64,000 nt of DNA from an uncultured Gammaproteobacteria bacterium. Lineage in GTDB: Bacteria; Patescibacteriota; Microgenomatia; UBA8517. Below are positions 13,710 to 56,790 of the stretch, in pieces. A model generated the notes under the pieces. That model did not search any database. It was not told the DNA's origin and saw only the letters and a list, made by a program, of their open reading frames with translations. Numbering within the stretch: position 1 is the stretch's first letter; each line of letters opens with the position of its first letter. Location: positions 15,215-79,214 of the forward strand of contig CAYSJW010000005.1 of the NCBI GenBank assembly GCA_964431555.1, given 5' to 3'. The position numbers were made by a program, and so were the translations under genes.

Positions 13710-13741
<32 letters not shown>

Positions 13742-16012: not shown

Positions 16013-16181
16013 GAAAATATACTAAACTGTTTACTACAAATAAAATTTTACATTTATTTTTTTCCAAAAACAACCCACCACCCACTACTCACAACCCACA
16101 ACTCACTACCCACCACTCACAACCCACAACTCATATCTCACCCCCCCTTCTTTTACTCTGACTTAAATGTATAATTAGATT

Positions 16182-16880
16182 ATGGAAAAACTAACCACAC
16201 TTGCCCTCAAGCTTCCCAGAAACACTCAGGTTACGCCGGAAGCGGCAAAAACCTTCCTTTCTGCACTCATCCAAATTAACTTTATCTCTACCTTTAAAAA
16301 ACTTTTCGGCACTAAAAGAAAACCTTTAGCTTTAGAGATTGCTCTTATTAATCAACAAATCTACTTTTTGATAACTACGGATAACGAACTTATTCCCTTT
16401 ATAGAAACACAGATTACCTCAAATTACCCCTTGGCGATAATCGAAAAGACAAAAGACCCTCTTGAAGTAATTTCTTACAATTTAGTCAACATTTTCCTTC
16501 AAAAAGGAAACTATTATCCAATTGCCACATTTGAAAATTTTCAAGAGGTTGACCTACTCTCTTCAATACTTTCTGTTCTTGCGAAATCCGATCCAGACGA
16601 AGTCACAGTCATTCAATATGCACTTGAATCAACAAATAATTCTTGGCAAACAAAAGGAGCGGGCTTTGCAAAAAAAGGAACAAAAAACCCCGATGGTACT
16701 TATTCCCCAAGATTTGATTTAAATATCATAAACGAAAAAATTTCTTACCCAGGTTTCAGATGTAGCATCCGAATTATTAGTAATGCAAATAAAACCCTAA
16801 ATGAATTGTCAAGTGCCTTTGGTGTCTTTAATAGATCCGACGGAAATTACTTTATTTCTCAAAGACCTAATTTTTTTTAA
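16182..16880 (+). CDS. Hypothetical protein.
   Basis: A 232-aa ORF with ordinary composition for this genome; no recognisable motifs. Confidence 0.45.
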   Translation: MEKLTTLALKLPRNTQVTPEAAKTFLSALIQINFISTFKKLFGTKRKPLALEIALINQQIYFLITTDNELIPFIETQITSNYPLAIIEKTKDPLEVISYNLVNIFLQKGNYYPIATFENFQEVDLLSSILSVLAKSDPDEVTVIQYALESTNNSWQTKGAGFAKKGTKNPDGTYSPRFDLNIINEKISYPGFRCSIRIISNANKTLNELSSAFGVFNRSDGNYFISQRPNFF

Positions 16881-17027
16881 TAATAGGAGTATAAAAACTA
16901 AACCAACCGGAAAGTAAAATATACTCAGAACCTTCATCTATTACCAGCTTTTATCAGAGGTAATAATATAACACAAGGCAACTTCATCCCAAAAGGAAAA
17001 TGTTAACAAATTTTACCTTCTTATCCT

Positions 17028-18317
17028 TTATTTCCCACCCCTACCTTTTCCTCGCTCGGAACGAGGGGGATGGTTTCCTGGAGTCTGTCCACGCTCATCG
17101 TTCGAGGGGTTTCTATTATTACTATTTCCTGGATCGCACCCTTCAGGACCATTACCAATACCTTGATTACATTTTCGCTTATTTTCCCCAGGAGTTTCCG
17201 GTGTTGGCTCTAATGTTGGCTCCGGTGTTGGCTTAGGAGTAGACTCGGTAGTTGGAATGCCCTGTTGCGGACCATATTCCTCGCCTCTAGGGACCTCTCG
17301 CACAACACCACCTACAGGGACAAATCTCCCACCATCAACACCACAAGGACTCCCATTTGAATCCCCACTATCTTGATCTCCAATAACTTTTTCTAGCCCT
17401 CGGTTATAAAGGTCTGGAGTATTGGCAAGAGAGAAGACCTCAACCCTTAGACCTTGACCGTCAGTAACCGCCGCTAATAAAACGGGGTTTCCGGAATCTT
17501 TTCCACGAAAAATTTCTTCTTCCCTTCCGTTACCCGGTTTTTCCACACCTCCTCGAAAACTAACTCTTGCCACATTCTCAAGCTGAGGACCAAAAAGAGG
17601 ATAGCCCAGATATGTTTCATTGGTATCAAAGTCAGGACCAATAGTCCACCATTTCCCATCAACATTCTGGGGTTGAATAGCAAGATCGTCATAGGCTATC
17701 CTTTCAAATAATCTCCTTCTTTCTTCCTGAACAGCAGGATGAAAAGGATCTTTACCTTGTAAACTCAAGAAACCATCAACATAAGCAAGAAGCGCTTTAT
17801 CAATCTCTTTTGCTTCTACAATTGCCCAGCCTCTACTGTAACCGTCATTACCTTTTCTTAGCAAGTCACCTCTACCTAGCAAATCCGAAGTTCTCAAATT
17901 CGCCAAATCGTTAGGAGTAAAGCCAAGACCCTGCCCATCATTTTTAAGATCAAAATCCAAACCTCTTTCCCACAAAGCGCCCTTAACTCCCTTAGGACCT
18001 CCAACAGGAGCGGTTAATTGGTGAAACATTCTATCATGCATATTAATCCTAGCATCCACGGCTTCCCTCAGAGGATTCTCTCGGAGTTCCCCATTAAGAT
18101 CTTCTAGTCTTCCCCTAAGATATTTTCCAAACGTTTCAGGAGTTACAATATTTATACCACCATTTTCTACTGCTGCAAAATTAACACCCGCTGGATGGCT
18201 TGAAATCGGATATTCGCGAGACGCTTCTGGACCTTCAACGAATAGAGCACCACCAGCCACAGCTGCTAGTCTTAAAAAATCTCTTCGTGATAATCGTGGT
18301 AATCTGTCGACTGCCAT
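17028..18317 (-). CDS. Tat-signal (twin-arginine) exported hypothetical protein with a Pro/Thr-rich C-terminus, compositionally atypical (~48-50% GC).
   Basis: N-terminus MAVDRLPRLSRRDFLRLAAVAGGALF (S-R-R-x-F-L motif plus h-region). The C-terminal tail is TPKPTPEPTLEPTPETPG-rich. Local GC is clearly higher than the flanking ~33%. Confidence 0.6.
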   Translation of the reverse strand: MAVDRLPRLSRRDFLRLAAVAGGALFVEGPEASREYPISSHPAGVNFAAVENGGINIVTPETFGKYLRGRLEDLNGELRENPLREAVDARINMHDRMFHQLTAPVGGPKGVKGALWERGLDFDLKNDGQGLGFTPNDLANLRTSDLLGRGDLLRKGNDGYSRGWAIVEAKEIDKALLAYVDGFLSLQGKDPFHPAVQEERRRLFERIAYDDLAIQPQNVDGKWWTIGPDFDTNETYLGYPLFGPQLENVARVSFRGGVEKPGNGREEEIFRGKDSGNPVLLAAVTDGQGLRVEVFSLANTPDLYNRGLEKVIGDQDSGDSNGSPCGVDGGRFVPVGGVVREVPRGEEYGPQQGIPTTESTPKPTPEPTLEPTPETPGENKRKCNQGIGNGPEGCDPGNSNNRNPSNDERGQTPGNHPPRSERGKGRGGK

Positions 18318-18567
18318 ACCTTCCTTTTAATTGTCTTTACTATACCAAAAAGGAGGCTTCTTGTCAACTACAGGATGTTTTTTACTCAAAACAAGTATAA
18401 CTCACAACATGATATCTCTTAGGCATTTGCACAAGAGGTAGTACAAACTGCTCTTACCTCCTTGTCTTGCTGTTAAATCTTTACCCACCCTCCCCCAAGC
18501 TGTTTTTTATTTTCTTCCGAGAGGCTAGGCTATTTTCAGGCAAAAGTGTTATCATAAATAAAGCCCA

Positions 18568-19332
18568 ATGAATAACCACAAAAAGTTATTTATCTACACA
18601 ATTCTAATAACTACAGCCTTCTTTCTAACTCGACTAATAAATCTGACCTTACAACCTATTTTTTGCGATGAAGCTATTTACATAAACTGGGCCCAAAAAA
18701 CAGAGAACAATTTTAAGCTAAACGCTTTTTTGCCTTTAACAGATGGTAAAACTCCACTTTTTATGTGGGCAACTTCATTAAGCCTTAAAATTTTCAAAGA
18801 TCCTCTTTTTGCTGGAAGAATAGTCTCAGTTCTTGCCGGTTTTTCTTCTCTCATCGCCGCTTTTTTTCTCGGAAAAGAAATTTTCAAAACAAAAACAGGA
18901 ATTATCTCTGCTATTCTGCTAACTTTTCTGCCGTTTACTCTGTTTTTTGACAGAATGGCCCTAGTTGATTCAATGCTTGCCACTTTTTATCTTTGGTCCT
19001 TAGCGCTTGCCTTAAAAATATCTCAAAAGCCCAAGGTCAAAACAGCCGTTCTTTTAGGCTTAAGTTTGGGAGGAGGGATATTAACCAAAACCCCGGGAAT
19101 TTTTGCTTTTATCTCTTTACCCTTCATACTCATTGCAACCAACTTAAAAGATCTTAAAAAGGTAGCACTTAATCTTGGTCTTTCCGCTTTTATTGGTTTC
19201 TTTATTTTTAACCTGCTTAGAATTAGCCCCTATTTTGAAAACTTGTCAAAAAGAGACTCTGGGTATTACTTTCCCATAAGACATATCCTAGAAAACCCCA
19301 CAAATCCACTAACTGGAAATACAATAGGGTAA
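18568..19332 (+). pseudogene. N-terminal fragment of a GT-C fold (GT39/GT83, ArnT/PMT-like) membrane glycosyltransferase, truncated by IS insertion.
   Basis: Polytopic membrane N-terminus with FCDEAIYINWAQ (DE..Y loop motif of PMT/ArnT-type transferases). The ORF ends after 254 aa with a TAA lying inside the IS inverted repeat (GGGTAAAGT), whereas family members are ~450-550 aa. Confidence 0.5.
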
Positions 19333-20184
19333 AGTCTAATTATTCGGACCTTAAATGTTGATTTAATAACATAAATAAGCGTTTTTCTTGCTCTTTGAAA
19401 TTTTAATTTCTGTGATTGTATCGCCAGATGTATTCTCCAAGATATAAAGGCAGTCTTTGTTGACAAATTCCACCTCTAGCCGCTAGTTTCCTTTTCAAAT
19501 ATCCCCAAAATCCTTCAAGGCCATTGATGTGATTTCCTTTTTTATTAGAATACTCTTTTTTACTATGATCAACAAGTCGATGGACATAACCTTTGGATGC
19601 TAATCCAGTGTATCCTCGCCAAGTATCAGAACAGATGGTTGAACCTTTGCTAACTTGTTTTTCAATTAAGGGTTGTAAATCTCTGGCTTCTGTATCAGGA
19701 ACAATCTCAGCGAATATCTTTCCTTCCCGGCACAAAATACCAAAGACTGGTTGTTTAATAGTCCCAAAACCCCTGCGATTTTTACCATATTTTATGCAGT
19801 CTTTTTGCTTTCTATTCTTCATTTGACCACCCAAGTAAGTCTCATCTACTTCTACTATTCCCGAAAAGATGTCTGGCACATCTTTAGTCATTACTATTCT
19901 TAACAGAATTAATAATTTCAGAAGTTTGTATTTGGAAATGTTAACCCTTTCAAGGATAGTGTTGGTTGAATGTTCTAACACAAACTCAGAAATTACTTTT
20001 TTAACAACCCTTTTATTAAGTCTTAGAAGCTTCTTTTTCAGAGTAAATGACTTTCGACAAACTAAACAACGAAGACGTCCATCTTTTAATCTCCAGAACC
20101 TTTTGGTATTACTACATTGTAAACATTTCGTCATATTCCTAATGTGATTTTATCCCATTAGGTCTGAAATATTGAACTTTACCC
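19327..20184 (-). mobile_element. IS1595-family insertion sequence (~858 bp) with ~24-bp terminal inverted repeats.
   Basis: Left end GGGTAAAGTCTAATTATTCGGACC (19327..19350). The right end reverse complement is GGGTAAAGTTCAATATTTCAGACC (20161..20184). It encloses transposase ORF 19403..20134. Confidence 0.8.
19403..20134 (-). CDS. IS1595-family (ISXO2-like) DDE transposase.
   Basis: N-terminal zinc ribbon CLQCSNTKRFWRLKDGRLRCLVCRK and a C-terminal region ...HINGLEGFWGYLKRKL...YLGEYIWRYNHRN typical of DDE_Tnp_IS1595. Confidence 0.85.
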   Translation of the reverse strand: MTKCLQCSNTKRFWRLKDGRLRCLVCRKSFTLKKKLLRLNKRVVKKVISEFVLEHSTNTILERVNISKYKLLKLLILLRIVMTKDVPDIFSGIVEVDETYLGGQMKNRKQKDCIKYGKNRRGFGTIKQPVFGILCREGKIFAEIVPDTEARDLQPLIEKQVSKGSTICSDTWRGYTGLASKGYVHRLVDHSKKEYSNKKGNHINGLEGFWGYLKRKLAARGGICQQRLPLYLGEYIWRYNHRN

Positions 20185-20446
20185 TATATTATGAAAGCTT
20201 TCTAGTCAATGATAACTAAAATATTCAAAACATATCTTCAAAGCACCCCTTGTTAGAAGAGAAAAAAATTTCAAGCGGGATCGTGGGACAAAAAACCTCC
20301 TTGTAAAACTCTTGGTGGAGGGTACAGAGATGGTAAAAAATAGCAGTTAGCAATTAGCAGTTAGTTGTTAGTTGTTAGTAGTTAGTAGTTAGCAATTAGC
20401 AGTTGGCGGTTGGTAATTAGCAGTTGGTTTTTAGTAAAATGCAAAT

Positions 20447-20719
20447 ATGAGCGGTTTTGAGGATTTGAGGATTTATAGACTTTCTTTGGAGGGCTGCAAG
20501 ATAATTTACAAGATTATTTTAAAAGACCCTATTAAAAAAGATTACTCTTTAGTTGATCAAATAAAAAGGGCAGTTATGTCGATTGTCGCTAATATTGCTG
20601 AAGGTTATGGACGCTACACTAAAAAAGACCGCTCTCAGTTTTTAACATATTCAATTGGATCTTGTAATGAAGTACTAGCCTTTTTGGATATAATCAATAC
20701 TATTTGTAATATTGAATAA
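20447..20719 (+). CDS. Four-helix-bundle protein (TIGR02436, '23S rRNA intervening-sequence protein' family), short form.
   Basis: LRIYRLSLEGCKIIYKI...AVMSIVANIAEGYGRYTKKDRSQFLTYSIGSCNEVLAFLDI has the NIAEG signature. It is a paralog of the ORF inside the 16S IVS. It is flanked by inverted heptamer arrays at 20341..20427 and 20811..20880. Confidence 0.75.
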   Translation: MSGFEDLRIYRLSLEGCKIIYKIILKDPIKKDYSLVDQIKRAVMSIVANIAEGYGRYTKKDRSQFLTYSIGSCNEVLAFLDIINTICNIE

Positions 20720-21109
20720 TATTGATGTATCAAAAGAAAAGAAAGTTTTTCTTTCTCTAGGAAAACAAATCTATTCATTCCGTAAAGCCCTTCAGAATTC
20801 ATAGTATTAACTCACTGCTTACAACCAACTGCCTACTACCTACTACCAACTACTTTACTGCTATCTGCCCACTGCCTAACGTATTACCGTTTCTCTACCC
20901 TCTATCAAGGGAAAATTACGCCAAGGTATTGGCGAATCAATCCAACAAAGCCCTACGGCGGAGTTGGAAAATACCCGGAGCTGGCCGAACCAGTTTTAAA
21001 TCCTCTTTCTGTTTGCCAAGAGCTGGCACCAAGGTCGCTAAGCGATCGCGCAGCTCCCCACTAGTAAAGTGGCAATTGAAAGAAGAAAACCAAGCAATAG
21101 GAGGTTTGA

Positions 21110-21531
21110 TAATGAACACCAAACGGATGTTTTTACTGGGTATAGTTGCCCTGTTGGTGGTCGCATTCGCGACCGGTACGGCATTGTCAAGCGGAGCCGC
21201 CGACATTACCGTTGTTTATGAGGACGACTATATGGTCGTCTATCAAGACGGTGATTTCGGTAACCGTATTGCGCTGAATAAAGCGGGAGGCGTGGATGCC
21301 TACTGTCCGTGCGAGGACGTCTGTCCTTTAACCGCACAGGGTGCTCCGGCAACCGCAACGCAACCGCCGCAGACAACGGCAACCAGCCAACCCCCATATA
21401 ACGGGGTGTGGATTCATCACGAATCCCAGGGCGTTGGCGACCAAAGCTGGACGCGCTGCATGCCACCGAGTGCCTGGAATGGACACAGTCCCCACGAAGG
21501 GGACTGGCTCGGTGGAGGTTGCTACCGCTAA
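21110..21531 (+). CDS. Secreted Cys-rich hypothetical protein in a GC-rich islet.
   Basis: MNTKRMFLLGIVALLVVAFATGTALSSGAAD signal peptide, then PATATQPPQTTATSQPP and several Cys/Trp. The region 20880..22080 is ~52% GC, and the tracked ORF begins further upstream at 20929. Confidence 0.5.
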
Positions 21532-22185
21532 TCGTCATTCGGGGTAACCCCAACACTAAGTCAGTTGGAAACTGACGACAAGGGTTACCCCACCCCCTCT
21601 CCCTTGTACCAAGTTTTACTTGGTGAGAGGCTCATCGATCGATCGAAAGATGGGTAAAACAAGGAAAGCGGGGCTCGCGAAATGGTAATTTTGCCCTCAA
21701 GACGCTTGCGTCTTTCGTCTTACGCAGACGATTAATGAGTGGCGATTTAGCCAATTTGCGAGTATGCGGACTGTTTATGAGTTGTGTTTTGATTTTAGGA
21801 CGAAACGATAACCGTAAGGTTATCAAATCAAGTAGCCAAAAAGCTACAAATCCAAAAAATCAAATCCAACCCCCAAAATAGTCCCCCCGCAATAGTTAGT
21901 TTTCGACCAACAGTCGAACTGAAGAGATCTTGTCCGATAATTATCGGAATGCGATCGAAACTATTAAACAAATTAATTAGTGTGTCGTAACTGATCCCAG
22001 CACAGAACTTACTTGCTCCCGAGTACTACGTGCTCGCGTCACAAGAGCGTTTATGCGGGACAAGTGAGACCGAAAGGTTGAAACTAAAAAAATAGTTTAG
22101 TATTTAGTTATTAGTGGTTAGTATTTAGTTTAAATTACACCTTAACAATTTATTCATTGACCAAAAATCACGGAAGTGGTTTAAT

Positions 22186-22671
22186 GTGGATATGGGAAAA
22201 GGCAAAGTGTTGACCAAAAAAGATGCTGAATTTTTAAAACAGGAATTCAAAAGTGTCTTTGCAACCAAAGAAAACCTTAAGATTTTAAAAAAAGAAATCG
22301 CCAACAGGGTGACAAGGTCTGTTGTTCCTCAAGTTACAAGGTCAGTGGTTCCTGAAGTTACAAGATCTGTCGTCCCTGAAGTAGCTAAGGCTGTCGTTCC
22401 TGAAATAGCGAAGGCTGTTGTTCCTGAAGTAACTCAAGCAGTTATCCCTCAAATTAAATCCGTCGTAAAGCTTGTAATTTCTGGGGAGTTAACAGAACAA
22501 GAAGAAAAGTACGAAAAGAAACTTGAAGAATTTAAGAGCGAGTTCTTTGACAAGGTTGACCTGATTTTAAAAGAAATAACAACGGTACAGGAAGAAAGAC
22601 CTTTGATTGAAAGTCGACTTGAAGCCCTTGAAAAAATTCATCCGCAAGGTAAACACGTTCTTTCATCCTAA
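22186..22671 (+). CDS. Tandem-repeat / coiled-coil hypothetical protein.
   Basis: Seven tandem 27-bp (9-aa) repeats VTRSVVPQ/VTRSVVPE/VAKAVVPE..., followed by a charged predicted coiled-coil C-terminus. Confidence 0.55.
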   Translation: MDMGKGKVLTKKDAEFLKQEFKSVFATKENLKILKKEIANRVTRSVVPQVTRSVVPEVTRSVVPEVAKAVVPEIAKAVVPEVTQAVIPQIKSVVKLVISGELTEQEEKYEKKLEEFKSEFFDKVDLILKEITTVQEERPLIESRLEALEKIHPQGKHVLSS

Positions 22672-23028
22672 TCACCCTTTAAAACCAAATCCCGTGTGTT
22701 TTCCTACCCGCAATGCCTGAAGCATAGCCAATGAAAACTGTCTGTGCAGGATTTGAAAAACGATTTTAATGGACCTGCACTAATTATTCAACTTGCTACA
22801 AATAAAAAAATTATTTAAATTTGATTGAGTAGGTTTATAATTAAAACATAGCTACCCAAAAGCGTGGGGGTAACCAAAGGTAAAAAACATAACCTAAAAA
22901 ATTATGTTACCTCTAAAGCAAAGTCCTGTACCGAATGGTATGGGACACTCCGCCGTCCTTGGGTAAAATCAAGGAAAGCGGAGAAACCAAAGGTTGCCTC
23001 CACACTTTTGGGGATCCAAGATTAGGAT

Positions 23029-23679
23029 TTAGTTTTGCGAAGATAAAATTGACTCAATTTTATTTCTGTTTTTTTCATTATCATCAGCATTAACTACTAA
23101 AATTACTTTTTCTATTTTTGAATCAGGTCTATCTTTAAAATAGTCTTTGATACCTCCAATAATTGATAATAATCGCGGCCTAAAAGTTTCCGGAGTAATC
23201 TCTCCAAATAAAGGAACTGCCACCGTCTTCACTTCAGCAGTACTTTCAGCCACCTCCAAAGAATTTCCAACTGCCAACCTCACTGGATCTTGACTTTTAC
23301 TTTCTCCAGTATTTGATATATTTGTATGAATTATTTTCTTAACCGAAGATCCTTCTAATCCCACCCCAGTTGCCACCGAATATCCCGGAGGAATATGAAC
23401 TTCACCTTTTAAGCCTATTTCTCTTAAACTTCCTTTAAAATGACTTTCTGCCTCTTTCGCCTTTCTAAATGGATCATCCCCAAATTTGATAATCAGTAAT
23501 TCTCCTTCCAAAGAAGTACTAAAAAAACTCCCATCATACGGGCAAACTAAAGCATCAGCTGTAACTTCATCTATTCTTCCAAAACTAATACTAACCTTAT
23601 CCCTCCAAATAGGAGCCTCTAAACGAATTGAACCATCTCCCGTCTCTCCGTTTCCCATACTATATTCTCTCACATTCAC
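23029..23679 (-). CDS. Hypothetical protein.
   Basis: 216-aa ORF with coding-like composition and no secure family assignment. Confidence 0.4.
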   Translation of the reverse strand: MNVREYSMGNGETGDGSIRLEAPIWRDKVSISFGRIDEVTADALVCPYDGSFFSTSLEGELLIIKFGDDPFRKAKEAESHFKGSLREIGLKGEVHIPPGYSVATGVGLEGSSVKKIIHTNISNTGESKSQDPVRLAVGNSLEVAESTAEVKTVAVPLFGEITPETFRPRLLSIIGGIKDYFKDRPDSKIEKVILVVNADDNEKNRNKIESILSSQN

Positions 23680-24222
23680 CTAAATTCACAAAATCACCAA
23701 TTCCTCAACACCGGGAGTTGATCAGCTTCCAACAATGGGTCTTTTAGATAAAGTGAGTTGTTGGTTGTTAGTTGTTAGTTGTTAGTTGTTAGTGGTTAGT
23801 GGTTAGTTATTAGTTGTAAGAGGTATGGAATGAGGAGTGAGTGGTGGGTAGTGGGTAGTGGGTTGTGGGTTGTGAGTAGTGGGTGGTGAGTTGTGATAAA
23901 TAGATATAGGAAGTTAGAAGTTAGTAGTTAGTATCTGGGAGTTGAGGAAAATAAACCCAAAACACAAAATTCAAAATTGTAATAAAAATTTAAAAATTAT
24001 AATTATTAATATAAAGTAGAATCATTAACTATTAACCATAAATTAATAATAATTTACAGGTTTTGAAGTTTAGTATAAAGCTTTCAAGATTTAGCTTTTG
24101 AGACACAAATATTCTCCATAATAAAAGACCAACGCCATATAAAGATTCTGAATAGCAATTTTATTCACTACAAAGTATTTTGACTGGAAAAATAGTTCAA
24201 TACTATAATATCAAATTACAGC

Positions 24223-24792
24223 ATGAATCCGGAAAGAAAAAGGCAAACAACCTTAATTTCCACAGAGCTTGGGTTCACAGTATTATGGTTATATCTCGCA
24301 TGTTTAAGTGGTTGTGAGGAAAATCGACAACAACTCTCAACATTAACTCCTCCTCAACCACCAGGTGAATCATCCAAGGGTCGAGACCTTCTTCCAACTC
24401 TCCCATCAGTAAAGCCAGAAACAAGAATGGAAGAACTAGTCAACCAAATTGAGGAAGAAGGCTATAATTGTGAGCCGATTCCAAAAGGTAGTTGGCTAAC
24501 CCAAGAACTAAGAAAAAGAGGAGCTCCAGGGATCGATGAGGGACCATACAAAATTATCCGAAGAGGTGGTAAAGTAGAAACCTTTGAAACTTATGATCAG
24601 CTTCCTAACCTAGTTTATCCAGGTGAGCAATTTTGCATCAAAGAAAATGGCAGTTCCTCGATTATCCCCGGAAAAAATCATGGAGTTATTTTTGAATGGA
24701 ATAATATGCCTTTTGTAAGAACACAAAATAGGGCTTTCCAACAAAAAAGTCAAGAAATAACATCTAGGCTCCGCGCAAAACAAAGGTTCTAA
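24223..24792 (+). CDS. Putative lipoprotein.
   Basis: N-terminal h-region followed by the lipobox LACLSGC. 189 aa. Confidence 0.5.
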   Translation: MNPERKRQTTLISTELGFTVLWLYLACLSGCEENRQQLSTLTPPQPPGESSKGRDLLPTLPSVKPETRMEELVNQIEEEGYNCEPIPKGSWLTQELRKRGAPGIDEGPYKIIRRGGKVETFETYDQLPNLVYPGEQFCIKENGSSSIIPGKNHGVIFEWNNMPFVRTQNRAFQQKSQEITSRLRAKQRF

Positions 24793-25079
24793 AATCTCAA
24801 AAAATCCCCTAGTCAAATTTATATTTTGACATCCAAAATATGACTGGAAGCGGTCCCCGTTTTATCACAGTCAAAACGGCGAACTTAAAAACTGGGTGCT
24901 ATCACCCCTCTTTCGCAAAAAAGCAAAAAGAGGGTTCCCGTGAGAACTCCTTAGAAAGGAGGTGATCCATCCGCTCCTTCCAGAACGGATACCTTGTTAC
25001 GACTTAATCCTCATCGCTGGTTTCACCTTCCCCTCCGACTCGGAGGGTTCGGGTGCCCCCAACTTTGCTGACTTGACGG

Positions 25080-25951
25080 ATTGCACTTCATCGAAGTTAT
25101 CGTGCGTTCCCACTAAGCGAGCGGCTTTCCCGCACTTAGCGAGCCGTAATGCTTATTCATCTCCAGCTTCAATTTCCTAATAAAAGAGAGTTCTTTTTCA
25201 GAGAGCTTACGCACATCCTGCCTTCCCTTAACTATCTCGGCTATTTGGCAAAAAGCATTAAAACTTTCCGCTTTATAGCCCAAGAGTTTATGTCGTTTGA
25301 AAAAGGGTATTATGACATTGTAAATATCATCCCTTTTTGTAAATTCAAAGACCCAAGCAGGAAGACGACCCACGCGCCTAGCACTCTTTTGATAAACAGT
25401 CCCTACGTTGAAAAATTGCTGGACCTTTAAAAGCAATGGTTTATTTCCTTCAGCTTGAGTAATGAAAAATCGTAAATCGATTCTGTTATCAGCTCGAATA
25501 GATACAAGGAAACATCCCTCACCTTCTGTCAATCCAACAACATATGAAGCTGGAAGCATTACGTATTTCCCTTCGATAATGCCAGTATACGAATGTTTTC
25601 AATATACTGTCAATTATCTACTATGGAAATGCTGACTTCCTAAAAGGCAATTACTTCGTTCCTTTTAGGATCTCCGTGGGTCATCATATATTCTATTCCC
25701 GGCATGAACAAATTGCTTTTACAAACTGGCTTCCTTCTGACCGCCCAGCAGAAGTCGCCAAGCATTTTCATTTTGTCCCTGCCGTTTGCCTCAGGCCCTC
25801 CGTTCTATCGGTTACCCGTAAAAGCAAAGTTTATACTTTGCAATAGAACTGCCAATTTTTTGGCTACATTTCAAGTTGGTAAAGGTTAACCATCAAGAAA
25901 TGGTAAGATTTTAACTTACTAGAATATATGACTGCCACGCGCGCATTTATT
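25080..25951 (-). mobile_element. Group I intron in the 16S rRNA 3' domain, inserted after GTACACACCGCC, carrying a LAGLIDADG ORF.
   Basis: 16S collinearity stops after ...GGGTCTTGTACACACCGCC (plus 25952) and resumes at CGTCAAGTCAGCAAAGTTGGGGG (plus ~25079). The ~870-nt insert contains ORF 25113..25559. Confidence 0.85.
25113..25559 (-). CDS. LAGLIDADG-family homing endonuclease (intron-encoded, in 16S).
   Basis: MLPASYVVGLTEGEGCFLVSIRADN carries the LAGLIDADG-type motif VVGLTEGEGCF. 148 aa. Confidence 0.9.
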   Translation of the reverse strand: MLPASYVVGLTEGEGCFLVSIRADNRIDLRFFITQAEGNKPLLLKVQQFFNVGTVYQKSARRVGRLPAWVFEFTKRDDIYNVIIPFFKRHKLLGYKAESFNAFCQIAEIVKGRQDVRKLSEKELSFIRKLKLEMNKHYGSLSAGKPLA

Positions 25952-26414
25952 GGCGGTGTGTACAAGACCCGAGAACGTATTCACCGCGACTTTGCTGATT
26001 CGCGATTACTACCAATTCCGCGTTCATGAGGGCGAGTTGCAGCCCTCAATCCCCACTGAGAAGCCGTTTGATGGGATTAGCTCCGCGTTACCGCTTGGCA
26101 ACCCATTGTCGGCTCCATTGTAGCATGCGTGTAGCCCTGGACATAAGGGCCATGCTGACTTAACGTCATCCCCGCCTTCCTCCAAGTTTAACTTGGCAGT
26201 CCCGTATGAACAATCTAACATACGGCAGGGGTTTCGTTCGTTACCCCACTGAAGGGAACACCCCACGGCACGAACTTACGATAGCCATGCAACACCTGTC
26301 CTACCATCCAACTTTCGAAGGATCTGCTACTATTTCTAGTAACATAAACGGTAGGATGTCAAGTCCAGGTAAGGTTCTTCGGTCCGTCTCGAATTAAACC
26401 ACATGCTCCACTGG

Positions 26415-26446
<32 letters not shown>

Positions 26447-27359
26447 TAAACTTGCGTTCGTACTCCCCAGGCGGCTCGCTTAACGCGTTAGCTTGCGCCC
26501 CACGCCCAAAGGCGTAGGGCTAGCGAGCATAGTTTACGGCTAGGACTACAGGGGTCTCTAATCCCTTTCGCTCCCCTAGCTTTCGTTCCTCAGCGTCAAA
26601 CAGTTCATAGTTACCTGCCTTCGCCCTCGGTGTTCCTTGCGATATCAACGGATTTCACCCCTACACCGCAAGTTCCGGTAACCCCTAAATGTTTCGATTT
26701 CTTCAGTATTACCTCCCTTTCCGAGGTTAAGCCCCGGTCTTTGAAAGATAACTTAAAGAAACGCCTACGAACTCTTTACGCCCAATAAATCCGGACAACG
26801 CTTGCACCCTCTGTATTACCGCTGCTGCTGGCACAGAGTTAGCCGGTGCTTATTCTCCGTTCGGTCTCCCTCACGGCAAAAGTGGTTTACAACCCGAAGG
26901 CCTTCATCCCACACGCGGCGTCGCGGCGTCAGACTTTCGTCCATTGCGCACGATTCCCAGTTGCTGCCACCCGTAGGTGTATGGGCCGTGTCTCAGTCCC
27001 ATTCTGGGGGGTCACGCTCTCACGTCCCCTACCCGTCGTAGCCTTGGTAGGCCATTACCCTACCAACTAGCTGATAGGCCGCAGGCTCCTCCTTCGGCGG
27101 ACAGTTACATCCTTTGCTGCGTAGCAGCCAACCATCAACTAACAACAATCAACTCACAACTCTTATATTAGTTGTCTTTTAATTGTTGAAGCTCACAAGA
27201 TGAGCGTGTTGAAAGCTCGCTGCTGCGCAGCGTATGCGGTATTAGCCCCGCTTTCGCGGGGGTATTCCCCACCAAAGGGTAGATTCCTACGTGTTACTCA
27301 GCCGTTCGCGACTATCCGCAGGACAGAACATTCAACAATAAACAAGTAACTGGTTACAA

Positions 27360-27722
27360 CTAACTCTTCTTAAGATACTTCGAAAAACCTCCAAGTTGAT
27401 CAGCAATCTGCTTAGTTTCCTTTATCAACTCATTTTTTAAAGTAGAACTTATAAGTTTAGATTCAAATGCTATATCAATTCCAGCAGTAGTTTCATTTAT
27501 AGAACCTAATGAGTTGTTTAAATACATATTCAATTCTTTATCAGAGTCTTTGCCAGATCCTTCTGCGATATTAAGAACTACAGAGAGACTACTCCTTCTT
27601 ATCTGATCCGCTAATTCCCTATGTTCTCTCGGGAAAGTTTTACTTATCTCAACAACTGACAAATAAAATCTTTTTGCATCTTTATAAACTTTAAACCTCA
27701 TAAATCGAAATGTTTTATCCAT
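27360..27722 (-). CDS. Four-helix-bundle protein (TIGR02436, rRNA intervening-sequence protein) encoded inside an IVS in the 16S rRNA V1 region.
   Basis: MDKTFRFMRFKVYKDAKRFYLSVVEISKTFPREHRELADQIRRSSLSVVLNIAEGSGKDSDKE has the family-defining NIAEG motif. The ORF sits ~70 nt into the 16S, between inverted flanks GGTCCGCAGGAC / GTCCTGCGGA that form the IVS stem. Confidence 0.85.
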   Translation of the reverse strand: MDKTFRFMRFKVYKDAKRFYLSVVEISKTFPREHRELADQIRRSSLSVVLNIAEGSGKDSDKELNMYLNNSLGSINETTAGIDIAFESKLISSTLKNELIKETKQIADQLGGFSKYLKKS

Positions 27723-28157: not shown

Positions 28158-29225
28158 TTAAATATCACCACTTCCAAAAAGTTTCTCAATGACACCAGCT
28201 CTCCAAAGCTGATGCCTAAGCGTTGTTGTTATACTCTGACCTATACTATTAACTGAATCATCACAATTACCTATCGAGGATGTTTTTGCCTTCAAAACAC
28301 TTGTAGAATGACACAAAATTTCGGCAAAATTAGTTACAAACAAAGGTAACCCTCCAGTTAAAGCCAAAAATTCATATTCACCTTTTATTCTCTTAATAAC
28401 TTCCCGAGGAGAACAACTTTGCTTTTCTGCAATATGCAAAGCATATCCCCAAAGATTTGGAATGCCCAATTTTTTATCCAAAGGGTACCCAACTACATCA
28501 TCCCGAACTTTTAAATTCATCTCCGAAAAATGAAGAGTTGCAATTCTTGAGAAAGTTAGTACCGAACTATAACTTTCCATCATGGGACAAACAACACTTC
28601 CACCACTTATTGTAAAAAGTGAGTACTTCCTTTCAATATCTTCAGTACCTTCACACACCTTTAAAAAATCCATTCCTACCTTATCCAGCACAGAGGGCAC
28701 AACCAAAGATAAACAACCCGCAACATATATGGCACTATCTAATTCGACAAATTTTCTCCACTCATCAGAAGAAAAATCCCCTCTTTTTTGGGAAAGAATT
28801 AAGAAATCACCAATCAAAGCTTGAACTACTTTTGCTTCTCTAGAATCATCCCCATATTTCTCATTAAAATTCCTAATTTCCTTTTCCAACCAACTAGAAG
28901 TTTTTTTCTCAAGACTCAATAAACCCTCCTCTTGATTTGGCAAACAACCATTTTCTCTCCTTAATTTTGCCGACACTCCAATATCCGCATATTCATTCGC
29001 CGAAATTAAAACAGGGGCAAGATTCCCAAGCAGTTCAAGTCCCCTATTTTTCCCTTCTTTTTTTACTTCCTCCGGAAAGACCATGTTTATAGCATTAAAT
29101 ATTGCAAGCGCAGTTCTAGGTATCTCAACCTTTTTACCTTCCAAAATTAGTCTTAAATAAATTCCAATTGATTCAAACGAAGAGTTTATGGCAGATCGAG
29201 GCGAAATTTGTATTTTTCTTTCCAT
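28158..29225 (-). CDS. Hypothetical protein (355 aa) immediately upstream of the 16S leader.
   Basis: Long ORF with coding-like composition and no recognised motifs. Confidence 0.5.
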   Translation of the reverse strand: MERKIQISPRSAINSSFESIGIYLRLILEGKKVEIPRTALAIFNAINMVFPEEVKKEGKNRGLELLGNLAPVLISANEYADIGVSAKLRRENGCLPNQEEGLLSLEKKTSSWLEKEIRNFNEKYGDDSREAKVVQALIGDFLILSQKRGDFSSDEWRKFVELDSAIYVAGCLSLVVPSVLDKVGMDFLKVCEGTEDIERKYSLFTISGGSVVCPMMESYSSVLTFSRIATLHFSEMNLKVRDDVVGYPLDKKLGIPNLWGYALHIAEKQSCSPREVIKRIKGEYEFLALTGGLPLFVTNFAEILCHSTSVLKAKTSSIGNCDDSVNSIGQSITTTLRHQLWRAGVIEKLFGSGDI

Positions 29226-30044: not shown

Positions 30045-30722
30045 TTAGACAAAAAGCTTAATAAAATAAATCGCAAGGAAATGCAAAGGATAAAAAACAT
30101 AAAACAAATATTTCGCCTTAAGACCAACTTTATGGTTGTATGACAAAATAAAAGCCAAAGAAAATAAACCAAAAATGTAACCCAGATCAACTTTAGAAAA
30201 ATTCAATCTATCACCTTCTATTCCTGAAAAAAACGATGCTAAAAATGCAAGGATAAAAAAAGACAGAATCATCTTTTTTTTGTCATTAAAGGTAAGATAA
30301 AAAAGTAAAGGAAGAATAACTCCGTAAAACCTATAATCAATGTTTAAAATACAAGAAAAAAATAAAACCGCCAGAAGCACAAATATAAACAAAGTATTTT
30401 TTTTCGCCTCTCTTACTGCAAAAATTAATAAAAGGGAAAGAAAAAAGGTAAAAAGAATGTTTAAACCAACATTTTCAAGGTTGATAGAATTATGCGCAAG
30501 ATTATAGGGAACCTGCGATAAAAAGGCAAAAATTAAAATACGGATAATATAATTTTTAATATTTTTGGTGTAGTGTGCACCGTTAGCAATCAAAAAAGAA
30601 AATAAAGGAAATGAAACACGGCCTATTATTCTCAAGAAAGTGTAATTAGGTAAGAAAAACAAACCAATGTGATCAACAACCATTGCCAAAATCGCCAAAA
30701 GCTTTATCTGAAAAAAACTCAT
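30045..30722 (-). CDS. TraX-family membrane protein.
   Basis: The N-terminus KLLAILAMVVDHIGLFFLP resembles the TraX (l.MliDHig) motif; polytopic. Confidence 0.55.
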   Translation of the reverse strand: MSFFQIKLLAILAMVVDHIGLFFLPNYTFLRIIGRVSFPLFSFLIANGAHYTKNIKNYIIRILIFAFLSQVPYNLAHNSINLENVGLNILFTFFLSLLLIFAVREAKKNTLFIFVLLAVLFFSCILNIDYRFYGVILPLLFYLTFNDKKKMILSFFILAFLASFFSGIEGDRLNFSKVDLGYIFGLFSLAFILSYNHKVGLKAKYLFYVFYPLHFLAIYFIKLFV

Positions 30723-30751
30723 CAGATAATTTTACATCAGAAAAAGAAGAA

Positions 30752-30890
30752 AAAGATAATTCCCCAGATCTTTATCGATAAAATTAAATATCCCAATTAA
30801 ATAATTAAATACCCGAAAGGTTTGAACCTATTCAACCCGTCGGGTTTGAACCTATTTTTTCATTAACTCTACGTTTAAATTCAAGAGATT
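30752..30890 (+). repeat. Direct repeat copy 1 (~140 bp) of a hairpin-containing element. It overlaps the 3' end of gene 30832..32118.
   Basis: AAAGATAATTCCCCAGATCTTTATCGATAAAATTAAATATCCCAATTAAATAATTAAATACCCGAAAGGTTTGAACCTATTCAACCCGTCGGGTTTGAACCTATTTTTTCATTAACTCTACGTTTAAATTCAAGAGATT. It is nearly identical to 32391..32539. Confidence 0.9.
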
Positions 30891-32118
30891 TTAAATATAA
30901 TGATCGTAAAAAAAGCCCAAATAACACTCTTTCTTCATCGTTAGGATCCTGTAGTACATCTGCATATGAAAGTGAAAAATCTAAATTACCTATAAAACAA
31001 ATCAAATGTAAACATTCTTCTAACCTTGCCCTATCTTCATAGTCAATATTTCTTTTTCGAAATAAATCTCTAGTATTAGCCATAATTACATTAAATAACT
31101 TTCTTCCAATACGAATATTAGTCGGTAATTTTTCAAATGCTTCTCTTAAAAATTTCTCAGCCTGAGATAATCTTTCAGCTTTTGATTTACTTCCCCACCT
31201 AGGATCTATTAACGTTGTAGCAAGCAACTCTTTGAACCTAGGATTATCTGGATCTCTATTAATTAAACTTTCTAATATTCCTCTAGCCATATTTAATCTA
31301 TTAATTGCTGATCTTTTTCCTTCCCACCTAGGATCTATTAACGTTGTAGCAAGCAACTCTTTGAACCTAGGATTATCATCTGGATCACTATTAGCTACTC
31401 CATCTAATAATATCTGTTGTGCTGTTTGAAACAAATTTGGATTATAAGACGATTGGAAAACGTGGCTTTTAGTTGTAAGTAAAAGTGCTAACACCTCTCT
31501 AACACCTTCAATTCTTACCCCTTCTATCCCCGATAATAATCTTTCTACTTGCTCTCTATGTTTTTCATTATAATAACGAACAAAATGTAAGTTTTCCATA
31601 CAAATTAGACATTCAGCCATTTCTATTACTTTTCCAGTCTCATTCCCTCTATCTCTGTTAGATCTCAAACCTTCATAAATAATATCAAATTTTCTTTTGT
31701 AATATCCTAATAACAACTGATCCAACACTAATTCAGCTGCCACTAGAAGATGAGCTTTTGCTTTTTCTTCCTCCCAAACGTCTGTCAAATATCTTATCGA
31801 AGAAAAGTTGTCTTTAATTCTTTCCAAGAATGATTCAGGATAAAATATTCTTAGATCAGAAGATAACTCTTCCAAACTAATTACTGCTACATCCTCAAAA
31901 ATAATTTCTGCCATATTTCTCCATAAGTTTTCTTCTAATGAATTTCTAGATAAAATTTCTCTCAATCTTCTTTTAGCATCTTCTGGAGGAATTTGATATA
32001 AATCTCCTATCAAATATCCTCTTTTTGAAACTAGACTATCTTCATCTCTCTCAAACTTAACAATACGAGGGGGTTCTTCTAGTCCACTTTCAACTGCTAG
32101 AGTTTCATTATCTTTCAT
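30832..32118 (-). CDS. Hypothetical protein (428 aa) with an internal ~40-aa tandem duplication, flanked by ~140-bp direct repeats.
   Basis: Long ORF with an internal repeat DPD(D)NPRFKELLATTLIDPRW(E/G)(G/S)K.S (DNA 31187..31262 vs 31307..31382). No family is recognised. Confidence 0.6.
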   Translation of the reverse strand: MKDNETLAVESGLEEPPRIVKFERDEDSLVSKRGYLIGDLYQIPPEDAKRRLREILSRNSLEENLWRNMAEIIFEDVAVISLEELSSDLRIFYPESFLERIKDNFSSIRYLTDVWEEEKAKAHLLVAAELVLDQLLLGYYKRKFDIIYEGLRSNRDRGNETGKVIEMAECLICMENLHFVRYYNEKHREQVERLLSGIEGVRIEGVREVLALLLTTKSHVFQSSYNPNLFQTAQQILLDGVANSDPDDNPRFKELLATTLIDPRWEGKRSAINRLNMARGILESLINRDPDNPRFKELLATTLIDPRWGSKSKAERLSQAEKFLREAFEKLPTNIRIGRKLFNVIMANTRDLFRKRNIDYEDRARLEECLHLICFIGNLDFSLSYADVLQDPNDEERVLFGLFLRSLYLKSLEFKRRVNEKIGSNPTG

Positions 32119-32348
32119 CTTAGTTTAAAGCCATAAAAAATCTTATAGTTTTATATTATATATCATATTTTTCTGAAAATGTCCATTCTTTGTTCTGGCT
32201 AACCACATCGGTAATACTTTGAAAAAGTTTTGAATCACACCTTAGAGGTGAAATGCCTTCACACCTTGGGTTTTTACTTTCATTTCTCTTTCTTTCATTG
32301 AATATTTTTCTTTTTAGAAGGTGAGTATGAAGTTAAACTTCGTTAACA

Positions 32349-32572
32349 CCCGAAAGGTTTGAACCTATTCAACCCGTCGGGTTTGAACCTAAAGATAATT
32401 CCCCGGATCTTTATCGATAAAATTAAATACCCCAATTAAATAATTAAATACCCGAAAGGTTTGAACCTATTCAACCCGTCGGGTTTGAACCTATTTGAAC
32501 CTATTTTTTCATTAACTCTACGTTTAAATTCAAGAGATTGAACCTATTCAACCCGTCGGGTTTGAACCTATT
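32349..32572 (+). repeat. Direct repeat copy 2 (32391..32539) plus extra partial core copies (32349..32390, 32540..32572) of the CCCGAAAGGTTTGAACCTATTCAACCCGTCGGGTTTGAACC hairpin element.
   Basis: Near-identical to 30752..30890. The core contains a small palindrome AACCCGTCGGGTT. A diverged copy is at 56738..56790. Confidence 0.9.
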
Positions 32573-32763
32573 TAAATTTGTGAGATAAATCAAATCTAAT
32601 CAACCAGTGAGGTTGGAGCTTAATTAGAGAGATATCCCATAATCTTAAAACAAGAGCCACAGCTATTTTTGTTGCCTCAGCAAAGAGCAAAACCGCTTCT
32701 TGGTTTTAAAACAATACCTACACTGAACCTGCCAAAGTGTTCACACTGAGCTTGCCGAAGTGC

Positions 32764-32832
32764 TGCGGGGCAGGGATTCGAACCCCGATAACAGCTTCCA
32801 AAGAGCTGTGTCCTACCGTTAGACGACCCCGC
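32764..32832 (-). tRNA. tRNA-Gln (anticodon UUG). Ends are approximate.
   Basis: Reverse complement GCGGGGTCGTCTAACGGTAGGACACAGCTCTTTGGAAGCTGTTATCGGGGTTCGAATCCCTGCCCCGCA has anticodon stem CAGCT/AGCTG and loop CTTTGGA. Confidence 0.75.
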
Positions 32833-33195
32833 AATGTAATTTCAATTAAGTTAAATAAGCAGGTAAATTATAACAAAAGACCAGTCCTTTTAAAACTCGG
32901 ATAACAAAAATATATTTTGTTCAAAAAGATTTCGTATAAAACATAGTTTTCCAGCAAATTTCCTAAGTCAAAGGGCTTCTAAGCTAAAACATTTGAATTC
33001 AAGTCCTCCCGAGCTTATAAATCTAGCAGGTTCAAAAAAACCAAAAATTACCCACTGTTGGAAGCTAATCAACACCCGGTGTTGAGAAATACTCACTACT
33101 CACAACTAACAACTCACTACCAACTTCTTACATCCTACATCCAATTTCCTATTGCCTTAACACTTAATAATTTGTCCTAATCTTCAATACCTAAG

Positions 33196-33267
33196 TGAGC
33201 CCAGAGGGATTCGAACCCCCAACCAACTCCTTAAAAGGGAGCTGCTCTACCATTGAGCTATGGGCCC
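33196..33267 (-). tRNA. tRNA-Lys (anticodon UUU).
   Basis: Reverse complement GGGCCCATAGCTCAATGGTAGAGCAGCTCCCTTTTAAGGAGTTGGTTGGGGGTTCGAATCCCTCTGGGCTCA has anticodon loop CTTTTAA. Confidence 0.85.
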
Positions 33268-33268
33268 G

Positions 33269-33340
33269 TGACCCCACCGGGAGTCGAACCCGGGTTTGCA
33301 CCTTGAAAGGGTGCCGTCCTAACCATTAGACGATAGGGCC
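33269..33340 (-). tRNA. tRNA-Glu (anticodon UUC).
   Basis: Reverse complement GGCCCTATCGTCTAATGGTTAGGACGGCACCCTTTCAAGGTGCAAACCCGGGTTCGACTCCCGGTGGGGTCA has anticodon loop CTTTCAA. It is directly adjacent to tRNA-Lys. Confidence 0.85.
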
Positions 33341-41772: not shown

Positions 41773-42311
41773 ACCAATTTATTTCTTAAACACATACAAC
41801 TAACAACTATTTCCTACATCCTACATCTTACTTGCTACTTCCTAACCCCAACTTCCAATCACCTACAACTAACCCCCTACCACTCACAACTAACTTCTCA
41901 CAACCCACCACTCATTTCCCATTACCTACAACCAATATCCATAACCCACTACTTACATCATCAACTTATTTATATTTAAATTTTTTATCCACTTTGATGA
42001 TTCGAATCATAGATACAGACTATCCTCATACACTTCACTAACAACAACCTATTACCTACTTCTCACTGCTCACTACCATCTGCTAATAACTACCAACCAC
42101 CTACTTCCTACTTCCTATATTCTACATCCTACATCTTACTTGCTACTTCCTAACCCCAACTTCCAATCACCTACAACTAACCCCCTACCACTCACAACTA
42201 ACTTCTCACAACCCACCACTCACTACTCACTACCCACTACTCACTATCCACCACTCACTACCAACAACCAACTACTCACAACTCCCTACCCTCTCAAATA
42301 AATCAGGGATA
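41770..42311 (+). repeat. A 540-nt tract almost devoid of G on the plus strand, built from degenerate heptamer repeats (CYCACWA / CCACTAM). It contains a 100-bp perfect internal direct repeat.
   Basis: Only ~7 G in 540 nt. Heptamer periodicity is visible, e.g. CCACTCA CAACTAA CTTCTCA CAACCCA CCACTCA. 41814..41914 is identical to 42123..42223. A 14-bp perfect palindrome ATGATTCGAATCAT lies at 41997..42010, preceded by the DnaA-box-like TTATCCACT. Confidence 0.9.
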
Positions 42312-56645: not shown

Positions 56646-56737
56646 AGGGATATTATAAAGCAGAAAGTTGAATGTAGAAAGTAGAAAGGAGGTTTTCTGG
56701 TCGACCAAATTGTTAATTGTTAAATCTTGGAATCAAA

Positions 56738-56790
56738 CACCCGAAAGGTTCAAACCTATTCAACCCGTCGGGTTGGAACTTATTAGAACT
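56738..56790 (+). repeat. Diverged copy of the CCCGAAAGGTT..AACCCGTCGGGTT hairpin repeat.
   Basis: CACCCGAAAGGTTCAAACCTATTCAACCCGTCGGGTTGGAACTTATT matches the core of the repeats at 30811..30852 and 32350..32490. Confidence 0.8.

Follow-up and report, generated by a model that had tools for sequence, protein, structure and literature searches.

Among the described systems closest to the locus reported here are the repetitive extragenic palindromic (REP) sequences of Proteobacteria, with their bacterial interspersed mosaic elements (BIMEs) and REP-associated tyrosine transposases (RAYTs), which are recognized by tens to hundreds of repeat copies per genome, and the Rickettsia palindromic elements (RPEs), which are reportedly selfish palindromes inserted in frame into protein genes. 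The genomes of bacteria of the candidate phyla radiation (CPR) are small and are thought to be poor in mobile DNA. Here we describe a 43-nt palindromic element, termed E (AGGTTCAAACCCGACGGGTTGAATAGGTTCAAACCTTTCGGGT in gene orientation), in a 64-kb, low-GC (36.7%) segment of an uncultivated Patescibacteria/CPR-type genome; this whole stretch is called the window below. No description of E, nor of repeat families in CPR bacteria, was found in the searchable literature. At the locus analysed, a 139-bp direct repeat containing E is present both at the 3' end and upstream of an orphan open reading frame (ORF) encoding 428 amino acids. The reading that we favour, with a probability of about 0.55, is that the 139-bp repeat is a recent local duplication by replication error at a hairpin, beside a probably acquired, TPR-like orphan gene in a region seeded with E.

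Anatomy and origin of the 139-bp direct repeat

Global alignment of the two direct repeats (30752-30890 and 32391-32539) showed 137 identical bases out of 139 and one 10-nt insertion (AAATAGGTTC/AGGTTCAAAT) in the upstream copy, and the copies can be told apart by two single-nucleotide polymorphisms (SNPs) and this one 10-nt indel. By sub-block, 30752-30857 and 32391-32496 were 98% identical, and 30845-30890 and 32494-32539 were 100% identical. A 31-nt core, TTGAACCTATTCAACCCGTCGGGTTTGAACC, was found exactly at 30822, 32359, 32461 and 32538 and in 0 of 100 shuffles, and the 13-mer GGTTTGAACCTAT occurred eight times, with 0.16 occurrences expected. The initial annotation of this DNA had described near-identical flanking repeats, extra copies of the core hairpin, a diverged copy at 56.7 kb, a 428-aa ORF with an internal duplication and an adjoining tRNA-Gln/Lys/Glu cluster, all of which proved to be real; the recent duplication of the unit that it suggested was borne out as a local event.

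In gene orientation (minus strand), the repeat is composed of c (the final 35 nt of the ORF and two microhomology bases), E (43 nt) and t, a 59-nt AT-rich tail. The locus as a whole can be read directly, in the same orientation, as tRNA-Gln, a degenerate E-like hairpin (E0) and a truncated E (E'); then, across a first junction, c, a 10-nt slip, E and t; then, across a second junction, a complete E, a 230-nt leader containing a second repeat type (R2) and the ORF, which ends in c, E and t and is followed, across a third junction, by TraX. The features are as follows.

30752..30890, minus strand: downstream (original) 139-nt repeat copy; t 30752-30810, E 30811-30853, c (ORF 3' end) 30854-30890.
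30832..32118, minus strand: 428-aa orphan ORF, predicted all-helical and TPR-like; its last seven codons and stop (IGSNPTG-stop) are encoded by E.
32233..32270, minus strand: R2 (CCCAAGGTGTGAAGGCATTTCACCTCTAAGGTGTGATT), in the ORF 5' leader; 87% identical to a hairpin flanking a degraded Y1 (IS200-like) transposase gene on the related contig L087.
32348..32390, minus strand: complete E copy directly upstream of the ORF 5' region; it abuts the upstream repeat, making the novel t-E junction.
32391..32539, minus strand: upstream (derived) repeat copy, 149 nt; t 32391-32449, E 32450-32492, 10-nt slippage duplication 32493-32502, promoterless ORF 3'-end fragment 32503-32539.
32538..32569, minus strand: E', the first 32 of 43 nt of E, broken inside the 3' stem of the hairpin and joined to the ORF-fragment copy via a 2-nt (AA) microhomology.
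32590..32622, minus strand: E0 (CAACC-TCACT-GGTTG), a degenerate, older E-like hairpin ~140 nt downstream of tRNA-Gln; 67% identity, profile E-value 0.073, and the only terminator-like match.

The stop codon and the last ~20 codons of the ORF lie inside the downstream repeat, where the core hairpin encodes the C-terminal IGSNPTG and the stop; c encodes part of the predicted last helix. The upstream c fragment has no start codon. Because the upstream copy carries a fragment of the gene's own 3' end, the two copies represent a local partial duplication rather than a pair of attachment sites, and the coding sequence within the repeat, together with the lack of a start codon upstream, gives the direction of copying as downstream to upstream. 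Both borders of the upstream copy are novel joints: the one between E' and c, inside the hairpin, shares AA, and the one between t and E shares one base. The three complete local copies of E match one another at all 43 positions, and the truncated copy matches them throughout the 32 nt that it retains, whereas copies at other loci differ at several positions; this exact identity indicates that the local copies are recent duplicates of one another. The locus is 100% identical in an ENA contig (L001) and two JGI contigs (L002 and L003), in which both SNPs and the indel are retained. Four more contigs (L090, L091, L092 and L095; JGI and Logan assemblies) end within the repeat, as assemblies usually do where a repeat is real. 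The repeat arrangement is not an assembly artefact.

The most parsimonious way to produce these joints would be a single template switch. Synthesis would stall inside the upstream E, at position 32 of 43, and the nascent end would re-anneal via the AA microhomology at the gene 3' end, 1.6 kb away; 139 nt (c-E-t) would then be copied before a return to the start of E, and this one event would yield E'-c-E-t-E. The segment comprising the last 35 nt of the ORF, E and the 59-nt tail would in this way be placed upstream of the gene, between a truncated and a complete E. An equivalent two-step route would be tandem duplication of a 1.64-kb unit, after which most of the first copy would be lost through a microhomology deletion. 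Replication slippage of this kind is what the junction sequences suggest. The 10-nt slip beside E, the presence of two or three copies of a 129-nt unit inside the ORF in different assemblies and a tandem duplication on L087 together point to such events being frequent around E. A local origin is also supported by the absence of an annotated recombinase gene near the locus (~5-62 kb of the window, the range to which all statements on annotated genes below refer) and by the finding of no second or empty site.

Several points weigh against this reading. A replication mechanism is not observable from sequence, and there is no ancestral single-copy state to compare, because the nearest TraX relatives are ~51-53% identical and lack synteny. 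Before the duplication, the gene was already bounded by identical copies of E in direct orientation; the same arrangement of E, genes and E is found on the related contigs L085 and L086, and fits a cassette. In addition, the E-bearing flank shared by L086 and L087 borders a spot where a restriction-modification (R-M) system and a helicase-nuclease gene replace each other, and the copy number of E in this organism is seen from 64 kb only. Mobilization of the gene is thus not supported, but mobility linked to E is possible, given that on these related contigs E adjoins a spot of defence-gene exchange.

Element E at other loci and the alternative explanations

On the gene strand, E folds as ACCCGA / GGGUUGAA-UAGG-UUCAAACCU / UCGGGU with a free energy of -16.8 kcal/mol (z = -2.65); the full 139-nt repeat is not unusually structured (z ~ -0.9). 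E may act as an RNA or DNA hairpin. A diverged copy lies elsewhere in the window:

56737..56784, minus strand: diverged E copy between a 75-aa ORF (56793-57020) and an Fpg glycosylase gene; it carries, on the minus (gene) strand, the GGTTTGAACC variant that is also found in the copies on L085-L088.

The 75-aa ORF just upstream of this copy (56793-57020; it ends in CPRC) has no Pfam annotation on record and no PHROG match, but the ENA contig has a gene call for it.

Searching JGI metagenome contigs with an exact 22-mer revealed E on five more contigs (L084-L088), and a profile search of the sequences gathered turned up further copies on L100 and L103 but in no other CPR locus. E is therefore a dispersed element, found on at least six metagenome contigs besides the window, at a density of two loci in the 64-kb window and two in 21.7 kb of L100. 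Full-length copies (L088; L100 5085-5149) are near-perfect palindromes of 55 nt, of which the window copies are 'half' forms. The contexts comprise gaps between co-directional genes (window 56.7 kb; L100 5085-5149), a gap between divergent genes (L087) and, in frame, the inside of a PMT_2 glycosyltransferase gene (L084/L100, L103 and L104). No E was found in viral contigs. Rfam searches of 30600-32800 at E-value <= 1 gave nothing except a spurious scaRNA match, and those of L084-L088 gave no match. The left arm of the local copies, once considered unique to the locus, was dropped as a distinguishing feature, as similar arms (TARGTTCNAA) are present at other loci.

In the PMT_2 protein P0004, the E-encoded GLNLFNPSGYLGLNLSG lies in a linker that most homologues lack or have in a different form; similar segments are present in P0005 and P0009. 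The E-like palindrome occupies the same position of this ArnT-like linker in three lineages with 59-67% protein identity (L100 11094-11156, L103 2981-3043 and L104 ~4075-4103), and in L104, the most distant of them, the E stem is changed on both sides in a compensatory manner. The in-gene hairpin may be either old and constrained or repeatedly inserted. Across five full-length palindromic copies, 85% of pair cells were paired and three pairs showed compensatory double changes; the covariation score was 0.154 compared with 0.108 in shuffles and was reached by nine of 500 shuffles, so that covariation of the stem, as judged from this alignment, is suggestive only.

Direct-orientation copies of E enclose three ORFs on L085 and, on L086, a DNA methylase gene plus a 251-aa ORF (an R-M pair). 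L086 1-2702 and L087 9405-12905 have flanks that are 98-100% identical, with a disrupted Y1_Tnp (IS200-like) gene on one side and E, the tail and trmD on the other, but the cargo at this shared spot differs between the two samples: L086 carries an N6/N4 DNA methylase and the 251-aa ORF, whereas L087 has a 925-aa helicase (AAA_11/AAA_12) that includes a DUF559 nuclease domain. The spot looks like a defence-gene swap site in a CPR bacterium. E as the crossover of this swap was rejected, since the right boundary falls 16 nt beyond the E core. The Y1_Tnp pseudogene of L087 (Pfam E-value 9.8e-11) is flanked by R2 hairpins, not by E. L085 starts with a 5' fragment of trmD (1-184, ~64 codons) that is cut by E at the conserved PYGGG motif and ends in VGSNPTG-stop, the E-encoded tail shared with the orphan ORF. 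L087 stops 41 nt into trmD, so the two contigs may adjoin each other with a repeat in between. L087 also contains a perfect 100-nt tandem duplication of E plus tail, and its tail, which precedes trmD, contains a TGnTAAAAT box by our reading of the sequence. Separately, between an R2-like hairpin and the helicase 3' end of L087 there is a ~110-nt GC-rich segment (9731-9908; ~60% GC in a 33% GC contig) with no Rfam match, which could be a structured RNA.

These contigs bring up an unlikely alternative, namely that the gene is a mobilizable cassette bounded by E, with E serving as the site of a recombinase encoded elsewhere (an HUH Y1 enzyme, as in the palindrome-associated transposable elements (PATEs) derived from IS200/IS605 or in REP-RAYT, or another site-specific recombinase). 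On this view, E-leader-gene-E would have entered beside tRNA-Gln as one unit, recurrent insertion would have generated the extra repeat as a side product, and an excision circle would join the gene 3' end to the 5' leader as ...GAAAAAAT-E-GTTAACGAAG. Identical E copies in direct orientation on both sides of the gene are what such a cassette would show, and the same architecture surrounds the R-M pair of L086 and the three ORFs of L085. The near-identical flanks of L086 and L087, with different cargo and a Y1_Tnp pseudogene adjacent, point the same way, as do the R2 hairpin in the gene leader, related to those flanking the L087 Y1_Tnp gene, the orphan status and deviant third-position base composition of the gene, and the recurrence of E joined to truncated gene pieces (the L085 trmD 5' fragment ending in GSNPTG-stop). 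However, tblastn with a Y1 transposase query detected no Y1_Tnp in the window, and the Pfam annotation of called genes contained no integrase, resolvase, reverse transcriptase or Y1 transposase. The Y1_Tnp genes of L086 and L087 are disrupted and flanked by R2 rather than E, the swap boundary 16 nt outside the core shows that E was not the crossover there, and the upstream repeat holds the gene's own 3' end, which is not a product of simple site-specific insertion.

The comparative searches are also at odds with a cassette. No second location, phage copy or empty site of the gene was detected in any dataset searched (protein sets, related contigs and viral contigs). When TraX was searched against one genome per species, the best match had 45% identity and lacked synteny; in a large protein collection the closest TraX proteins were 51-53% identical, and the orphan gene was absent beside them. 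L097 retains the TraX-VTT pair, but its upstream region differs; on gene order, all that this comparison shows is a lack of conservation of the orphan gene over such a distance. When TraX and SpoU were looked up as exact proteins, every contig returned had either the same arrangement or a break in the repeat. The only transposase found was a 243-aa DDE ORF of the IS1595 family (19403-20134, minus strand) in an insertion sequence (IS) at 19319-20192. The terminal inverted repeats of this IS (19319-19351 and 20160-20192) are imperfect, 33 nt long and unlike E in sequence; this rules out E as a miniature inverted-repeat transposable element (MITE) of the resident IS. The 'mobilised cassette' of the initial annotation was accordingly not upheld: its upstream repeat is a partial copy of the gene region, no recombinase is annotated, and the empty site looked for in relatives was not found. 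That annotation had also said that its view would fall if relatives carried the gene without flanking repeats and the repeats turned out to be a widespread REP-like element. The core hairpin is indeed a dispersed REP-like element at unrelated loci, whereas relatives carrying the gene without repeats were not found.

More speculative still is the idea that E, perhaps with R2, is the cis-acting site of an undescribed CPR cassette-shuffling system, the trans enzyme of which might be an HUH Y1 transposase. If this were true, E-bounded units would have moved beside housekeeping genes (tRNA-Gln and trmD) carrying orphan or defence genes (the TPR gene, the R-M pair and the helicase-nuclease), and after each transfer long duplicated flanks would remain, together with truncated gene stubs that end in GSNPTG-stop.

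It is improbable that E and its tail are instead a regulatory module, the hairpin being a terminator, attenuator or mRNA stabilizer and the tail a promoter for the next gene, kept in two copies by selection for the duplication, which would have put a terminator-promoter unit ahead of the orphan gene. The E sites of the window directly follow a same-strand gene (the orphan ORF, tRNA-Gln and the 75-aa ORF), the hairpin is stable, and most copies of E are followed by U-rich sequence; the tail directly precedes TraX and, on L087, precedes trmD with the TGnTAAAAT box, so that a promoter there might be suspected. Scans with terminator and promoter consensus sequences, however, did no better than chance and placed no site at E. 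E also lies between divergent genes on L085-L087 and ends 8 nt before a start codon on L100, unlike a simple terminator, and the copies inside a coding region cannot terminate transcription.

Insertion by an integrase at tRNA-Gln, giving a classical genomic islet with the direct repeats as attL and attR, is very improbable and has been largely refuted. The unit does lie ~190 bp downstream of the tRNA-Gln 3' end between direct repeats, the setting that the initial annotation had regarded as a typical integration context. The resemblance is superficial: the repeats neither overlap nor copy the tRNA (they reach to 32572, whereas tRNA-Gln begins at 32762), no repeats involve tRNA sequence apart from T-arm matches between the tRNAs, and E occurs at loci without tRNAs. 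Moreover, the ~25 kb to each side have no annotated integrase, the single ORF of the 1.8-kb unit has no recombinase domain, and one 'att' copy would include the coding end of the cargo gene.

That the locus is a collapsed or chimeric repeat in a metagenome-assembled genome has very little to commend it: several assemblies break in the repeat and the number of internal 129-nt units varies between assemblies, but the NCBI window and the ENA and JGI contigs agree on the order, with copy-specific SNPs and the indel, and jointly cross every junction. A diversity-generating retroelement (DGR), in which the repeat at the gene 3' end would be the variable repeat, its upstream counterpart the template repeat and E the hairpin that follows, is suggested by a ~140-bp repeat over a gene 3' end with a hairpin right after it, and DGRs are common in CPR bacteria, but it is refuted because of the mismatch pattern (only 35 nt of the repeat are coding and these are 100% identical between copies, both differences lying in the non-coding tail and not being adenine-specific within a coding variable repeat), and no reverse transcriptase (RVT) is annotated.

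The orphan gene and its surroundings

The remaining features of the locus are as follows.

30045..30722, minus strand: TraX-family membrane protein gene, the next gene downstream of the orphan ORF; it starts 30 nt past the repeat.
31186..31409, minus strand: in-frame internal tandem duplication of a 129-nt (43-aa) unit (DPDxNPRFKELLATTLIDPRW...); 31186-31248 and 31315-31377 are 95% identical.
32155..32165, minus strand: candidate extended -10 box (TGATATATAAT), which precedes the ATG by ~40 nt and was proposed from reading the sequence; the consensus scan is not above chance.
32762..33340, minus strand: tRNA-Gln, tRNA-Lys and tRNA-Glu, overlapped by no repeat; the tRNA-Gln 3' end is at 32762.

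The chance probability of an open frame as long as that of the orphan ORF, at the composition of the window, is ~2e-15. The gene is an orphan of odd base composition: its G+C content at third codon positions (GC3) is 0.179, the lowest of 39 ORFs (mean of the others 0.294, SD 0.030; z = -3.8), which fits a foreign origin or fast turnover. The only relative of the protein, in a word index of 5.8e9 proteins and a full HMMER scan of 1.84e9 representatives, was a 471-aa allele of itself; P0003 was rejected as a relative because it gave a spurious repeat match (E-value 7.5e-4). This allele is due to the 129-nt unit, present in two copies in the NCBI-derived window and in three in the ENA and JGI assemblies, which is the sole difference among assemblies and is either a true polymorphism or an assembly collapse. 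The gene looks accessory, as had been proposed, being an orphan with the lowest GC3 and being absent beside the nearest TraX relatives. It is lineage-specific and was probably acquired horizontally.

The protein had been described as belonging to no recognizable family, which is nearly right: Pfam matches to TPR_19 (27.2 bits, cut-off 25) and TPR_14 (24.7 bits, cut-off 23.5) lie just over their cut-offs, and no single stretch passes alone. Single-sequence AlphaFold (AF2) models were all-helical, with low confidence (pLDDT 49 for the full length and 56 for residues 121-428). The best Foldseek matches in the PDB were all TPR proteins (TTC5, IFIT5 and designed CTPR) and were weak (E-values >= 0.003, TM ~0.3-0.38). 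A defence function, also put forward in the initial annotation, found no backing: PADLOC gave no family at E-value <= 0.1, there was no match in PHROGs, PDB sequences or viral contigs, and the one NCBIfam match was far below threshold (13.6 bits with a cut-off of 374). No function is assignable to the protein other than that of a TPR-like scaffold. Like TPR solenoid proteins, the protein is predicted to be all-helical with a helix-turn-helix periodicity, and it has Pfam TPR matches over the cut-offs and TPR-only top Foldseek matches; unlike them, it has a repeat unit of 43 rather than 34 aa, marginal scores and no homologue beyond its own species.

The genes surrounding the orphan ORF are all on the minus strand and follow one another, in the order of transcription, as tRNA-Glu, tRNA-Lys, tRNA-Gln (32762-32833), the 428-aa ORF, TraX, a DedA/VTT protein and an unknown 355-aa protein; a SpoU gene lies past the tRNAs on the plus strand. 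The ORF of this unknown protein (28158-29225), with the DedA gene on one side and the 16S rRNA gene on the other, had no Pfam, NCBIfam or PADLOC match. The window has six tRNAs in all and dispersed rRNA genes (5S 10013-10130, 23S 11235-14310 and 16S 25898-27399), which with interspersed protein genes are spread across 17 kb (10013-27722). Two LAGLIDADG genes lie beside rRNA genes, one being an ORF at 25113-25559 and the other close to the 5S/23S region, and the 16S match shares its 5' end with a 23S_rRNA_IVP four-helix-bundle ORF (27360-27722). Many arrays with a period of 7 nt (for example ACTCACN, AGTTGTT and TAGCAGT), in which super-periods of 14, 21 and 28 nt also occur, lie between genes and frequently adjoin tRNA or rRNA genes; they were observed at 16070-16133, 20341-20437, 23756-23896, 33090-33120, 42190-42289, 59598-59656, 59763-59854 and 60209-60250 of the window, and none was seen on L087 or L100.

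Comparison with described systems

As it stands, the locus is a case of ordinary genome dynamics rather than a new system: a palindromic dispersed repeat causes local rearrangement beside an orphan gene. It documents a palindromic repeat family in CPR bacteria that marks structural instability (duplications, truncated gene stubs and assembly breaks) and borders sites of gain and loss of orphan and defence genes. The finding is of use in assembling and comparing CPR genomes, and provides a concrete sequence with which to seek a cognate enzyme. Readings of the locus as attC, DGR, tRNA island or TnpB/omega-RNA were each rejected on their defining features.

Integron cassettes with attC sites (e.g. 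Vibrio VCRs) resemble the locus in that a single gene lies between near-identical direct repeats of ~140 bp, the ORF enters the palindrome-bearing repeat, and the E motifs GTTGAAT and ATTCAAC fit the R' (GTTRRRY) and R'' (RYYYAAC) consensus sequences. However, these R-box-like motifs flank the central 7 nt of the palindrome and not its outer ends (the attC palindrome is 57-141 nt). There is also no IntI (no Phage_integrase among the called genes) and no array, only one gene being bracketed; the other E-flanked genes share E only and not the 139-nt repeat, and the repeat includes coding sequence of the gene. The PATE derivatives of IS200/IS605 share the order hairpin-cargo-hairpin with both hairpins on the same strand, and Y1 relics are present on the related contigs, but the unit and its surroundings contain neither tnpA nor tnpB, RuvC and Zn-ribbon signatures are lacking from the 428-aa protein, and no conserved cleavage tetranucleotide could be defined.

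MITEs and Correia-type elements are, like E, small, non-coding and palindromic, with defined ends and many contexts, and assemblies break at E; they differ in that E has no consistent target-site duplication at its ends and no parent IS was found. With REP/BIME and RAYT, E shares the properties of a short imperfect palindrome that is mostly intergenic, dispersed, sometimes clustered and specific to a species or lineage, and the Y1_Tnp gene with inverted R2 hairpins on L087, together with the one R2 copy at the orphan locus, adds to the likeness. In contrast with REP-RAYT, E flanks no Y1 gene seen, none is in the window, and its observed density is low (2 loci/64 kb); unlike in BIMEs, the copies at the locus are all in direct orientation and do not alternate, and the full form, a 55-nt palindrome, is longer than typical REPs.

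RPEs are approached in another respect. E lies in frame in the variable linker of PMT_2, where it is an extra or variable segment relative to homologues, as in RPE-bearing proteins, and it supplies the C-terminal residues and stop of both the orphan ORF and the truncated trmD of L085. E is shorter than RPEs (43-55 compared with ~100-150 nt), most of its copies are intergenic, and the in-gene copy occupies one position in three diverged lineages, so that it may be old or constrained rather than the result of repeated insertions. Set against these systems, E is a member of a dispersed REP/MITE/RPE-like palindromic family in this CPR group.

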